Assembly: GCA_030704845.1 (NCBI GenBank)
Contig: JAUYKZ010000001.1
Coordinates: 621 to 64,620 of the forward strand
Length of the DNA stretch: 64,000 nucleotides
Direction of reading: 5' to 3'
Source: an archaeon
GTDB taxonomy: Archaea; Nanobdellota; Nanobdellia; Woesearchaeales; GW2011-AR9
Shown here in pieces: positions 14,659 to 56,738 of this stretch. The stretch's first letter is position 1; the number at the start of each line of letters is the position of its first letter. Under the pieces are notes generated by a model. It saw only the letters and a program-made list of their open reading frames with translations. It did not search any database and was not told the origin of the DNA. The translations under genes and the position numbers were made by a program.

Positions 14659-14806
14659 GCCCCAGTGGCTCAGCGGTTAGAGCATTCGGCTGTTAACCGG
14701 AGGGTCGTCGGTTCAAAACAGATCTCCCGGATCTGGTAGAGGGATTCGCGGTCACTCGCGTTCCCGCTCATAAGATTTGGAGATTGGGAAAGTCCGACCT
14801 GGGGCG
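14659..14806 (+). tRNA. tRNA-Asn (anticodon GUU) with a ~74-nt intron in the T-loop
   Basis: Acceptor GCCCCAG/CUGGGGC, D-arm GCUC-AGCGGUUAG-AGC, anticodon stem-loop UUCGG-CUGUUAA-CCGGA, variable loop GGGUC, T-stem GUCGG...CCGAC. The T-loop (UUCAAAA...U) is interrupted by 14719-14792. The intron ends can pair (CAGAUCUCC with GGAGAUUG), which is BHB-like. Confidence 0.75.
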
Positions 14807-38272: not shown

Positions 38273-38440
38273 GGCGATGTAGCTAAGCCTGGCAGCGAGA
38301 AAGCAGAGCTTTCTAAGTTTCCCTGCTTTCGCTGGGAAATTATAGCGCAACGCTCATATATATTGAGCGATGAGACATTATATGTCGATGACTAGCTTTG
38401 GGCAACGTTGAGGTCGCGTGTTCAAATCACGCCATCGCCA
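38273..38440 (+). tRNA. Intron-containing class-II-like tRNA (Ser/Leu type); anticodon and intron positions unresolved
   Basis: Acceptor GGCGAUG/CAUCGCC, a 3-bp D-stem with the archaeal AAGCCUGGC D-loop, T-arm GCGUG-UUCAAAU-CACGC. The gene is 168 nt, so it must contain about 80 nt of intron(s). A long alternative helix (AGCGAGAAAGCAG with CUGCUUUCGCU) competes with a simple anticodon-arm reading. Confidence 0.5.
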
Positions 38441-38449
38441 CTTCCTTAC

Positions 38450-38551
38450 GCCAACGTGGCACAACTCGGTACTGCGCAAGCCTGGAACTCAGGAAAGTAT
38501 CAGCGAGCTTGTTTCCTTCGGGATATCCCGGTTCAAATCCGGGCGTTGGCG
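38450..38551 (+). tRNA. tRNA-Ser (anticodon GGA) with a canonical 18-nt intron after position 37
   Basis: Acceptor GCCAACG/CGUUGGC. D-arm GCA(C)-AACUCGGUA-(C)UGC. Anticodon stem CAAGC/GCUUG with loop CUGGAA-[CUCAGGAAAGUAUCAGCG]-A. Class II variable arm UCC-UUCG-GGA. T-arm CCCGG-UUCAAAU-CCGGG. Confidence 0.7.
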
Positions 38552-40633: not shown

Positions 40634-41413
40634 TTAATTGTGGGTTTTGTTTCCAACAATCTCTCGGTAAACTTCCCACGCACTTTTTTGTTCCATCTTT
40701 TTGATTACTCTAGAGAAAGCCACATCATGTAATCCGTTATGGGCTGGATTCTCTAAAACAATTGCGTCTTGCAGATTAGCAATATTATTTTCTTTAATGA
40801 CTTTCATCCAAGCAAAAGAGAATGCATACGCTTTAGCTTCTTCATCACGAGAATCATCTAACGGTTGAGTTAGAACATGTCCCAACTCGTGACCTAAAGT
40901 AAGCATGACTCTTCCTAATGAACCTTCGGGAATGAAAACTTCTGAAAGAAGTCCATGTTTAGTTCTATTTATGGATAATCCTACCACACTTGGAGTGGGA
41001 GCAATTTTTTTGAATTCCTCTGGTTTACAGATACTAATTTTAATATTGCCGGGGAGAGTTTTTCCAAAAATCTTTTCGAATGCATTTTCAATGTGAGGTC
41101 TAATTTCTTCAGCCTTACCTACAAATATTCCTTCTTTCCCAGGGATCAGAAATTGTTCGGGTAAGAAATGGTATTCCGATTTTGTTGGAAATAAATCATA
41201 CAATACTTGCTGCTGTAAATGGTATTTATTTTCCGTTTGATCATTAGAATAAGAAAACGGAATCGTTGGTGTAAACAGGCTATACGGTCGAAAAGAATCT
41301 TGTTGTGCTGGGTGATAAGAAGCTGTAGAATGTGCGATGTATTCTAATCTACTTTCTACCTCTGTTCTTTGTTCGTACAATCTTCCGGTCGTATATCTTG
41401 TCCCTGAATACAT
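40634..41413 (-). CDS. Putative zinc metallopeptidase (ImmA/IrrE-like HExxH protein)
   Basis: LTLGHELGHVL HExxH motif about 85 aa from the C-terminus. Confidence 0.5.
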   Translation of the reverse strand: MYSGTRYTTGRLYEQRTEVESRLEYIAHSTASYHPAQQDSFRPYSLFTPTIPFSYSNDQTENKYHLQQQVLYDLFPTKSEYHFLPEQFLIPGKEGIFVGKAEEIRPHIENAFEKIFGKTLPGNIKISICKPEEFKKIAPTPSVVGLSINRTKHGLLSEVFIPEGSLGRVMLTLGHELGHVLTQPLDDSRDEEAKAYAFSFAWMKVIKENNIANLQDAIVLENPAHNGLHDVAFSRVIKKMEQKSAWEVYREIVGNKTHN

Positions 41414-41498
41414 TTTGGTGCCATTCTCATCCTCAGCCTACTTCGATTATCCCATGATGGGATTTTATAAAGTTCTTCATTGGATCTTGAGGGTAAAG

Positions 41499-41658
41499 CG
41501 GACCCGGGAGGACTTTCCCAGTCTCTCTAGGAGATCTGTTTTGAACCCCCGACCTACAGCTCTCTTCCATATTGGTAGGAGGCTGTCGCCCTATTTGGCT
41601 CACGCCTAATTCTCTCTTTTGGAGAGAATTATAGGTATCCAGTCTAGGCTACGGGTCC
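41499..41658 (-). tRNA. tRNA-Arg (anticodon CCU) with three introns (D-loop, anticodon loop, T-loop)
   Basis: Minus-strand read: acceptor GGACCCG/CGGGUCC. D-stem GCCU/GGGC enclosing about 55 nt, including an 8-bp hairpin AUUCUCUC/GAGAGAAU. Anticodon stem ACAGC/GCUGU with loop CUCCUA-[CCAAUAUGGAAGAG]-A. T-stem GGGGG with loop UUCAAAA-[CAGAUCUCCUAGAGAGACUGGGAAAG]-U. 160 nt minus about 86 nt of introns gives 74 nt. Confidence 0.65.
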
Positions 41659-41683
41659 TTGAAAGCTCGGAAATGACTCTGCT

Positions 41684-41693
41684 TTTTATACTT
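41684..41693 (-). promoter_or_regulatory. TATA box (AAGTATAAAA on the minus strand) 25 nt upstream of tRNA-Arg(CCU)
   Basis: Canonical spacing to the tRNA 5' end. Confidence 0.5.
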
Positions 41694-41716
41694 TGGGGAG
41701 AAATATCCGATTATAT

Positions 41717-48400: not shown

Positions 48401-49540
48401 CTATTCACTTGCTTCTTGTTTTTCTAACCACTTCTGTTTAAGAATTTTAAAAGTCTCTTCCGAGATAGAACTTCTAATATCTTCCATTAATTTACAATAA
48501 AAGTAAAGGTTGTGGTAAGTCATTAATGAATAAAATAATAATTCTTTTACTTTATAGAGATGATGAATATATCCTTTTGAATAATTCTTACAGACGAAAC
48601 AGGAACAATTTGGATCTAATGATGAATTATCCTCTTTAAATTGCGAATTACCAATTCTCACTCTAAACTTGTTATCGACATTTCCGCCAGATTCTGGTCT
48701 AACAAAAAAGTAACCCAATCTAGCTAGTCGTGTTGGAAGAACACAATCAAATGTATCCGCGCCGCATTCAACATAATCAAAAATATCTTCCACGCTACCT
48801 ATCCCTAACATGTGTTTAGGTTTATCTTCTGGAAGAAATGTCATGGTATGTTTAACTATCCCATGAATCTCTTTGGTAGGATCACCAAATATTCCGCCAA
48901 TACCATAGCCGGGGAAGGGGAGAGAAGCGATAAATTTGGCTGATTCTTCTCTAAGATCTTTAAATCTACCTCCTTGAACGATTCCAAAGAGTGCTTGATT
49001 TGAATTGCTTTTTTGATGTTCTTTTAAACATCTTAATGTCCATTGATGAGTTCTTCCCATGGCTTCTTTTGTTCTTTCAAGACTGTCATTAAAATGGACG
49101 CATTCGTCAAAAGTGAAAATGATATCTGCTCCGATATTCTGCTGAATTTGCATAGATTTTTCCGGAGTAAACCTGTGAGAAGAGTTGTCAATGTAAGATT
49201 TGAAATCAACTCCTTCGTCATCTGTCTTTGAAAGTCGACCGTTTAAACTGAATACTTGAAATCCTCCGCTGTCGGTAAATGTCGTTCCATCCCATGCCAT
49301 GAATGAATTTAATCCTCCTAATTTAGAAATAATTTCATCTCCTGGTTTAAGATAAAGATGATAAGTATTCGCTAAAGTTGCTTCGTATCCAATTTCTTTT
49401 AATTGTTGTGCAGATAATCCTTTGATAGCTGCTCGTGTTGCAACCGGAATAAAAGCTGGCGTTTTAAGATTACCATGGGCGGTTGTAATTATACCACATC
49501 TAGCCAGGCCGTCTTTGTGAATTATTTGAAAGGATAGCAT
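48401..49540 (-). CDS. tgt: tRNA-guanine transglycosylase, bacterial QueTgt-like
   Basis: MLSFQIIHKDGLARCG...TPAFIPVAT...DSGGFQV and the zinc site CSCFVCKNY...H. The N-terminal region resembles bacterial Tgt rather than archaeosine ArcTGT. Confidence 0.85.
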   Translation of the reverse strand: MLSFQIIHKDGLARCGIITTAHGNLKTPAFIPVATRAAIKGLSAQQLKEIGYEATLANTYHLYLKPGDEIISKLGGLNSFMAWDGTTFTDSGGFQVFSLNGRLSKTDDEGVDFKSYIDNSSHRFTPEKSMQIQQNIGADIIFTFDECVHFNDSLERTKEAMGRTHQWTLRCLKEHQKSNSNQALFGIVQGGRFKDLREESAKFIASLPFPGYGIGGIFGDPTKEIHGIVKHTMTFLPEDKPKHMLGIGSVEDIFDYVECGADTFDCVLPTRLARLGYFFVRPESGGNVDNKFRVRIGNSQFKEDNSSLDPNCSCFVCKNYSKGYIHHLYKVKELLFYSLMTYHNLYFYCKLMEDIRSSISEETFKILKQKWLEKQEASE

Positions 49541-56609: not shown

Positions 56610-56728
56610 GGGCTTGTAGTATAGTGGATAGTACGGCCGGCTTCGGGAAGTGGAAGTATTGTCTTCACTTGCAGTCACCGGCTAACCGGGGTTCGAATTT
56701 GAAAAAAACGAAAGTCCCTGCAAGCCCA
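56610..56728 (+). tRNA. tRNA-Arg (anticodon UCG) with two introns (30 nt after position 37; about 17 nt in the T-loop region)
   Basis: Acceptor GGGCUUG/CAAGCCC. D-arm GUAU-AGUGGAUA-GUAC. Anticodon stem GCCGG/CCGGC with loop CUUCGG-[30 nt]-A. T-region CGGGG-UUCGAAU-[UUGAAAAAAACGAAAG]-(U)CCCUG. Confidence 0.7.
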
Positions 56729-56738
56729 TTCATTTCAA

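Follow-up and report, generated by a model that had tools for sequence, protein, structure and literature searches.

The genes for archaeal tRNA can carry up to three introns of the bulge-helix-bulge (BHB) type (PMC8450103; PMC4033280). There are 71 introns in the 46 tRNA genes of Pyrobaculum calidifontis, and multi-intron tRNAs are also found in other Crenarchaeota, in Thaumarchaeota, Korarchaeum and N. equitans, and in ARMAN-1/2 (PMC8450103; PMC4033280). The latter combine disrupted tRNA genes with an epsilon2 EndA (PMC3239211). Closer to the present case, the main text of Kaneta et al. (2018) reports that several DPANN lineages have EndAs of the alpha4 type bearing an 'L3' loop at the C-terminus, and ties these enzymes to marked disruption of tRNA genes; a Woesearchaeota genome was among those analysed, and disruption was noted in both Woesearchaeota and Pacearchaeota (PMC5829648). 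It also gives the DPANN tRNA sets found by tRNAscan-SE 2.0 as incomplete, probably as a result of disrupted genes that were not identified. That main text has no gene-level account of a three-intron tRNA-Arg(CCU), of intron positions or of an orthologue series (PMC5829648).

We have analysed a stretch of archaeal DNA of 64,000 nt, the whole of which is termed the window. Sequence comparison indicates that the minus strand between 41658 and 41499 is a real tRNA-Arg(CCU) gene that is split into four exons by three short introns. The reading we favour, with a probability of around 0.88, is that this is a functional, promoter-driven gene with protein-spliced introns of the BHB type at positions 19/20, 37/38 and 59/60, carried by a Woesearchaeota-like DPANN host whose tRNA genes are as a rule interrupted. 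The gene, whose assignment draws on its orthologues, is complete in 160 nt (41499..41658), would give a mature product of 75 nt and does not encode the CCA.

All the pieces of a class-I tRNA are present in this interval, in order. Exon 1 (41639..41658) comprises the 5′ strand of the acceptor stem (GGACCCG), U8 and A9, the 5′ strand of the D-stem (GCCU) and the D-loop as far as G19 (AGACUGG). The 44-nt intron follows, and exon 2 (41576..41594) then provides the remainder of the D-loop (AUA), the 3′ strand of the D-stem (GGGC), G26, the 5′ strand of the anticodon stem (ACAGC) and C32 U33 C34 C35 U36 A37. Beyond the 14-nt intron lies exon 3 (41540..41561), with A38, the 3′ strand of the anticodon stem (GCUGU), the variable loop AGGUC, the 5′ strand of the T-stem (GGGGG) and the T-loop from U54 to A59 (UUCAAA). 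The 27-nt intron separates this from exon 4 (41499..41512), i.e. U60, the 3′ strand of the T-stem (CCUCC), the 3′ acceptor strand (CGGGUCC) and the discriminator G73. The acceptor stem GGACCCG/CGGGUCC has seven out of seven pairs, and the anticodon stem ACAGC/GCUGU closes the 7-nt loop CUCCUAA on splicing. ARAGORN calls the spliced 75-nt product tRNA-Arg(cct), with a clean cloverleaf, G18 and G19 in the D-loop and a T-loop UUCAAAU, although such acceptance is weak alone as combinatorial deletion of segments yields many false tRNA calls. The arginine-type features are present, namely the anticodon C34 C35 U36, A20 (which directly follows intron 1) and the purine discriminator G73. A20 and C35 are identity elements for ArgRS in bacteria and yeast. 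The orthologues spliced in silico (68 loci, among the matches listed) are also called tRNA-Arg.

BHB motifs were sought as an outer helix h, a central 4-bp helix H flanked by 3-nt bulges that are cut after the second nucleotide, and an inner helix h′. A complete hBHBh′ motif, having both of its 3-nt bulges, is present at all three junctions, in the register that restores the cloverleaf. Intron 1 (41595..41638, minus strand, 44 nt), in the D-loop at 19/20, contains an internal 10-bp hairpin; its motif is CCUA GACU GG^A UAC...GUG AGCC AA^A UAGG (H 3/4, h 4 and h′ 3, where ^ marks the cut). Intron 2 (41562..41575, minus strand, 14 nt) lies at the canonical 37/38 position, with the motif ACAGC CUCC UA^C CA...UG GAAG AG^A GCUGU (H 3/4, h 5, h′ 2). 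Intron 3 (41513..41539, minus strand, 27 nt) is in the T-loop at 59/60, with the motif GGGGG UUCA AA^A CAG...CUG GGAA AG^U CCUCC (H 3/4, h 5, h′ 3). Each central helix thus has one mismatch, being A.C, C.A and A.G for introns 1 to 3 respectively. The initial annotation had proposed a tRNA-Arg(CCU) with introns in the D-, anticodon and T-loops, and this is borne out by the cloverleaf, the in-register BHBs and the syntenic orthologues. Its 14-nt intron after position 37 was exact. Its D-loop and T-loop introns were correctly located, and require adjustment from about 46 nt with an 8-bp hairpin to 44 nt after G19 with a 10-bp hairpin, and from 26 to 27 nt; the spliced length becomes 75 nt including G73, rather than 74 nt.

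The quality of the motifs was compared with that of shuffled introns. The exons were held fixed and each intron was shuffled 20,000 times, scoring the central plus inner helix in the register that gives the same product. Shuffled sequences attained the observed quality in 0.35% of cases for intron 1, 1.1% for intron 2 and 0.9% for intron 3, giving a joint probability of ~3e-7 if the three introns are independent. A generic count of strict BHBs is uninformative, with about five arising by chance per 321 nt, and hence only register-specific tests were used. A fold containing all three BHBs and the acceptor stem lies ~22 kcal/mol above the minimum free energy (-41.4 compared with -63.1 kcal/mol), so that the D-loop and T-loop BHBs are not predicted by thermodynamics alone. 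The introns do not resemble self-splicing group I and group II introns, the catalytic core of which takes up hundreds of nucleotides; they are 14-44 nt in length, and match no Rfam intron family.

These results bear on the possibility that the cloverleaf has been put together by chance from unrelated sequence, or that the region is coding. Many false tRNAs can indeed be built if segments are freely deleted, and a plus-strand ORF of 90 aa (41337-41609) overlaps the locus. However, the joint shuffle probability is very small and the orthologues are conserved and syntenic. Moreover, close relatives differ by indels of 44 and 22 nt (neither being a multiple of three) and of 39 nt, which excludes a conserved reading frame, and the ORF is not a gene. 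Chance or coding origin has a negligible probability, and is effectively refuted.

The decisive evidence for the interrupted tRNA-Arg(CCU) gene is, in our comparison of the sequences, that of syntenic relatives, in which the exons and junctions are kept and the introns vary or are absent. Genome contigs were searched for orthologues using exon 3, giving at least 120 loci (designated by L and a number) from many lineages, including the syntenic L110. Spliced-aligner artefacts near the acceptor ends (3/4, 5/6 and 69/70), occurring where acceptor stems differ, were left out. The syntenic orthologues compared were L121-123, L124/125 and L110, in which a neighbouring protein is 82%, 80% and 59% identical respectively. 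The mature tRNA matches the window product at 74/75 positions in L121, 71/75 in L124 and 73/75 in L110. The exons are 95-99% conserved among these loci and the introns diverge freely. The D-loop intron is 44 nt in the window and 0, 39 and 20 nt in L121, L124 and L110; the corresponding lengths are 14, 53, 38 and 33 nt for the anticodon intron, and 27, 27, 49 and 0 nt for that of the T-loop.

Loci without a given intron continue directly across the predicted junction. L121-123 have no D-loop intron and read GACUGG^AUAGGG, L110 has no T-loop intron and reads UUCAAA^UCCUCC (UUCAAAUCCUCC), and many more distant orthologues have no 37/38 intron and read CUCCUA^AGCUGU (CUCCUAAGCUGU). Exon 1 is identical in L121-L125. 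The changes in stems that span introns are compensatory; in the acceptor stem C5:G68 becomes U5:A68 in L110 (the one change in its exon 1, compensated in exon 4), and in the T-stem G49:C65 becomes C49:G65 in L124. The central helix of the BHB covaries at 19/20 (GCCU:AGGC, GUUU:AAAC, GACU:AGUC and GUCU:GGAU) and at 59/60 (UUCA:UGAA and UUCG:CGAA) among the at least 120 loci. Among the matches listed, 68 orthologues aligned cleanly, with no intron in 14, one in 30, two in 19 and three in five. D-loop, anticodon and T-loop introns are all present in the window, L003, L038, L040 and L047, and also in L124/125.

We note two departures from the consensus in the relatives. The near-universal U33 is replaced by C (giving the loop CCCCUAA) in L124/L125, L041, L071 and L080, and the tRNA-Arg(CCU) of L121 has G51.A63.

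The comparison also constrains how the gene may be parsed. A real tRNA might have other intron boundaries or another number of introns (e.g. two, with one loop enlarged), or its anticodon might not be CCU. Four cut pairs at the D-loop junction lead to the same product, so that this junction is degenerate, and alternative cuts in the anticodon loop could generate CCA. However, of these four D-loop cuts it is that at 19/20 alone which forms a BHB, the intron-less orthologues fix the three junctions and the CUCCUAA loop, and G73 and the orthologue set are those of tRNA-Arg. We regard such variants as very unlikely indeed, and retain tRNA-Arg(CCU) with introns at 19/20, 37/38 and 59/60.

The gene is preceded by an archaeal promoter, recognised from its sequence and conservation (41683..41696, minus strand). 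The TATA box TATAAAAA (41690-41683) lies 24 nt before G1; the initial annotation had put it 25 nt upstream. It is contained in a block TATTTCTCCCCAAAGTATAAAAAGCAG that is identical in L121-L125, the flanks of which have diverged. A purine-rich CCAAAG comes before the TATA box at a BRE-like position, and may act as a BRE.

The window contains five tRNA genes, all of which are interrupted, with nine introns altogether. The remaining four are on the plus strand. They were parsed explicitly; automatic deletion of candidate BHBs followed by ARAGORN was dropped as it made many false calls. A tRNA-Asn(GUU) gene (14659-14806) has a 75-nt T-loop intron at 59/60 (14718-14792), with a BHB of H 3/4, h 5 and h′ 3; it was missed by ARAGORN, and Rfam gave a partial match (14664-14725). 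A tRNA with anticodon CAU (Met or Ile2; 38273-38441) has introns of 47 nt in the D-loop after G19 (38293-38339) and 46 nt at 37/38 (38359-38404). It was detected by neither ARAGORN nor Rfam, and 8 nt separate it from the tRNA gene that follows. This is a tRNA-Ser(GGA) (38450-38551) with an 18-nt canonical intron (38488-38505; H 4/4, h 6), scoring 42.7 bits with Rfam and not called by ARAGORN. Lastly, a tRNA-Arg(UCG) (~56612-56729) has introns of 30 nt at 37/38 (56647-56676) and 17 nt in the T-loop at 59/60 (56698-56714), the latter with a BHB of H 4/4, h 5 and h′ 2; it was found by neither program. Thus of the five genes ARAGORN detected none and Rfam two.

This behaviour extends to tRNA-Arg(CCU) itself. 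The unspliced locus gave no match with ARAGORN, either by default or with intron options, and none to Rfam RF00005 at 41499-41658 even at E<=10 (the gathering threshold being 29 bits). ARAGORN with intron models had been suggested as a check on the gene, and fails as such at the unspliced locus, recognising the spliced product alone. The absence of a match is as expected of a gene with three introns, and has no bearing on function. Rfam at E<=10 gave weak snoRNA-like matches on the opposite strand, which we regard as chance or as echoes of the C/D element described below.

It might be argued that the locus is a tRNA pseudogene in which insertions have built up during decay, so that the 'introns' are never removed. 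It is not recognised by standard tools, there is one mismatch in each BHB, and the relatives have the oddities of G51.A63 and C33 noted above. Yet the strong conservation of the exons alongside divergent introns, the compensatory changes in the stems and the conserved promoter are not what decay would leave, the insertions fall exactly in BHB registers, and the layout recurs in distant MAGs. Furthermore, five out of five tRNA genes in the window are similarly interrupted, and these cannot all be pseudogenes. We therefore consider a pseudogene very unlikely, and the functional gene remains our preferred reading.

The T-loop introns of tRNA-Arg(CCU) and tRNA-Asn(GUU) are related. They share their first 10 nt and 13 of the last 14 nt, both beginning ACAGATCTCC and ending GAGAYTGGGAAAG, and the 49-nt T-loop intron of L124 aligns with the tRNA-Asn intron over its whole length. 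From these sequences we conclude that they are homologous, and belong to one intron family. The occurrence of family members at the same position (59/60) in the two genes suggests that the intron has spread between tRNA genes, with later shortening through internal deletion.

A further element lies in the 3′ trailer, 13 nt past the end of tRNA-Arg(CCU). This is a C/D-box-like sRNA of 62 nt (41424..41485, minus strand). A box C/D sRNA is expected to have a C box RUGAUGA and a D box CUGA that a terminal stem brings together, and before the D box a guide, 10-12 nt long, for which there is a target. Here the C box is AUGAAGA (41480-41474), the D guide is UCGAAGUAGG and the D box is CUGA (41436-41433). 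The element has its own BHB, CC CUCA AG^A UCC...GGA UGAG AA^U GG, that is complete (H 4/4, h 2, h′ 3), although it could be due to chance since about five such motifs are expected per 321 nt when the register is unconstrained. Excision through this BHB is therefore put forward as a putative event. The boxes, D guide and BHB flanks are kept in L121-L125 and the interior varies; in six loci the terminal stem UCC/GGA, the C box, the D box and an invariant D guide are kept, with C′ and D′ degenerate. In L002, L021 and L052 a homologue of the element is located inside the 37/38 intron of tRNA-Arg(CCU). There was no Rfam match on its strand. A search for the guide target CCUACUUCGAU (predicted CCUA[C]UUCGA) in the window and 125 loci returned only the complement of the guide itself, and the guide does not match tRNA-Arg(CCU).

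A second C/D-box-like family, GAUGAUGA ... AGAGAGUUAGC-[CUGA/CAGA/CCGA], accompanies tRNA-Arg(CCU) in MAGs of Woesearchaeota and Theionarchaea, being found in the 37/38 intron in L022, L026, L028, L034, L042, L053, L054, L083, L109, L111 and L112, and directly 3′ of the tRNA in L006 and L095, i.e. in the same two placements as the first family. These observations can be joined in a tentative reading, which we think rather doubtful as a whole. A fourth BHB would excise, and possibly circularise, the 62-nt C/D guide from the trailer, and a BHB intron with its cargo would have moved between the anticodon loop and the trailer. EndA would then serve as a general system for release of sRNA, and the shared T-loop intron of tRNA-Arg and tRNA-Asn would be a case of intron spread outside the Thermoproteales.

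The window has a G+C content of 34.6%. Around the tRNA gene the order is an AsnC/Lrp regulator, tRNA-Arg, a 259-aa protein with no Pfam family (NCBI MDP3989617.1; Q8Q01_00240), DUF483 and an ExoIII-like nuclease. The same order is found in Candidatus Woesearchaeota archaeon CG10_big_fil_rev_8_21_14_0_10_45_16 (L110) at 59-66% amino-acid identity, and in L121-L125 at 80-82%. Where homologues of the 259-aa protein carry the name of their source, it is given as Woesearchaeota, Nanoarchaeota or 'archaeon'. On the basis of the synteny with L110 and these labels we place the host as a Woesearchaeota-like DPANN archaeon, and not in the Thermoproteales. Several MAGs labelled 'uncultured Methanosarcinales archaeon' (e.g. 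L002, L007, L038, L040 and L052) carry DPANN-style multi-intron tRNA-Arg genes, and in L052 neighbouring genes (AspRS-like, DUF483 and Bro-N) are shared with those of the window, with amino-acid identities of 58-72%. These bins may be labelled with the wrong taxon.

By analogy with established archaeal biology, a precursor would be transcribed from the conserved TATA box, EndA would cut both 3-nt bulges of every BHB (six in all), and an RtcB-type ligase would join the four exons. Addition of CCA would then give a 75+3-nt tRNA that, once aminoacylated, would decode AGG codons. The window also encodes a TGT-family tRNA-guanine transglycosylase (48401-49540, minus strand; Pfam TGT, E = 9e-133), which probably modifies G15 as the archaeosine enzyme. 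Since G15 of tRNA-Arg(CCU) is one of the central-helix nucleotides of its D-loop BHB, there could be an interplay in the order of modification and splicing.

It had been proposed that the locus constrains the type of splicing endonuclease, through relaxed BHB recognition, and the lineage. These inferences reach beyond what the data permit. The BHBs are complete with both bulges, and not one-bulge relaxed forms, and the motifs in themselves consequently demand neither a particular endonuclease architecture nor an enzyme of relaxed specificity; relaxed recognition is not supported. Nor is the architecture of the enzyme readable from the window; there was no Pfam match to EndA (tRNA_int_endo) or RtcB in 48 of the 68 non-overlapping ORFs of at least 70 aa. 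Published work makes the crenarchaeal (alpha-beta)2 enzyme, which has a CSL loop, an improbable candidate here.

The main value of these data is for the annotation of DPANN genomes and for the dynamics of introns. Published DPANN tRNA sets are incomplete, with disrupted genes that the main text of Kaneta et al. predicts rather than describes, and the locus offers a case, worked out in detail and validated by comparison, of a tRNA gene with the maximal degree of interruption in a Woesearchaeota-type DPANN archaeon. With all five genes of the window interrupted and so few detected by the programs, it is likely that 'missing tRNAs' in DPANN MAGs are artefacts of annotation, and not evidence of dependence on a host. 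Among the orthologues BHB introns have been gained, lost, shortened and apparently copied at short evolutionary distance, a record against which models of archaeal intron gain can be tested, and the genes provide natural substrates with which to characterise a DPANN EndA with an L3 loop.

A close parallel in intron content is with the multi-intron tRNAs of the Thermoproteales and other Crenarchaeota, which likewise have as many as three BHB introns per gene, in both canonical and non-canonical places. In the Thermoproteales similar introns occur in different tRNA species, and have been read as the result of transposition (cited in PMC4033280); the homology of the tRNA-Arg and tRNA-Asn introns in the window resembles this. 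By contrast, the host here is a low-GC, Woesearchaeota-like DPANN archaeon, and the BHBs are complete with both bulges. The disrupted tRNAs of DPANN archaea (PMC3239211, PMC5829648) are the same phenomenon in the same superphylum. A eukaryotic nuclear tRNA gene with three introns is interrupted in the same three arms, but the endonuclease complex is different and the layout has thus arisen independently. The euryarchaeal tRNA-Trp intron encodes a C/D box sRNA that is released through BHB cleavage. The trailer element resembles this in linking a C/D guide to a tRNA gene with release by a BHB (putative here), and differs in that in the window and L121-L125 it is outside the body of the tRNA, in the 3′ trailer with its own BHB. 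The structure of the gene is therefore known in itself; the lineage is one that has barely been described for it, and the density of nine introns in five genes is less ordinary.
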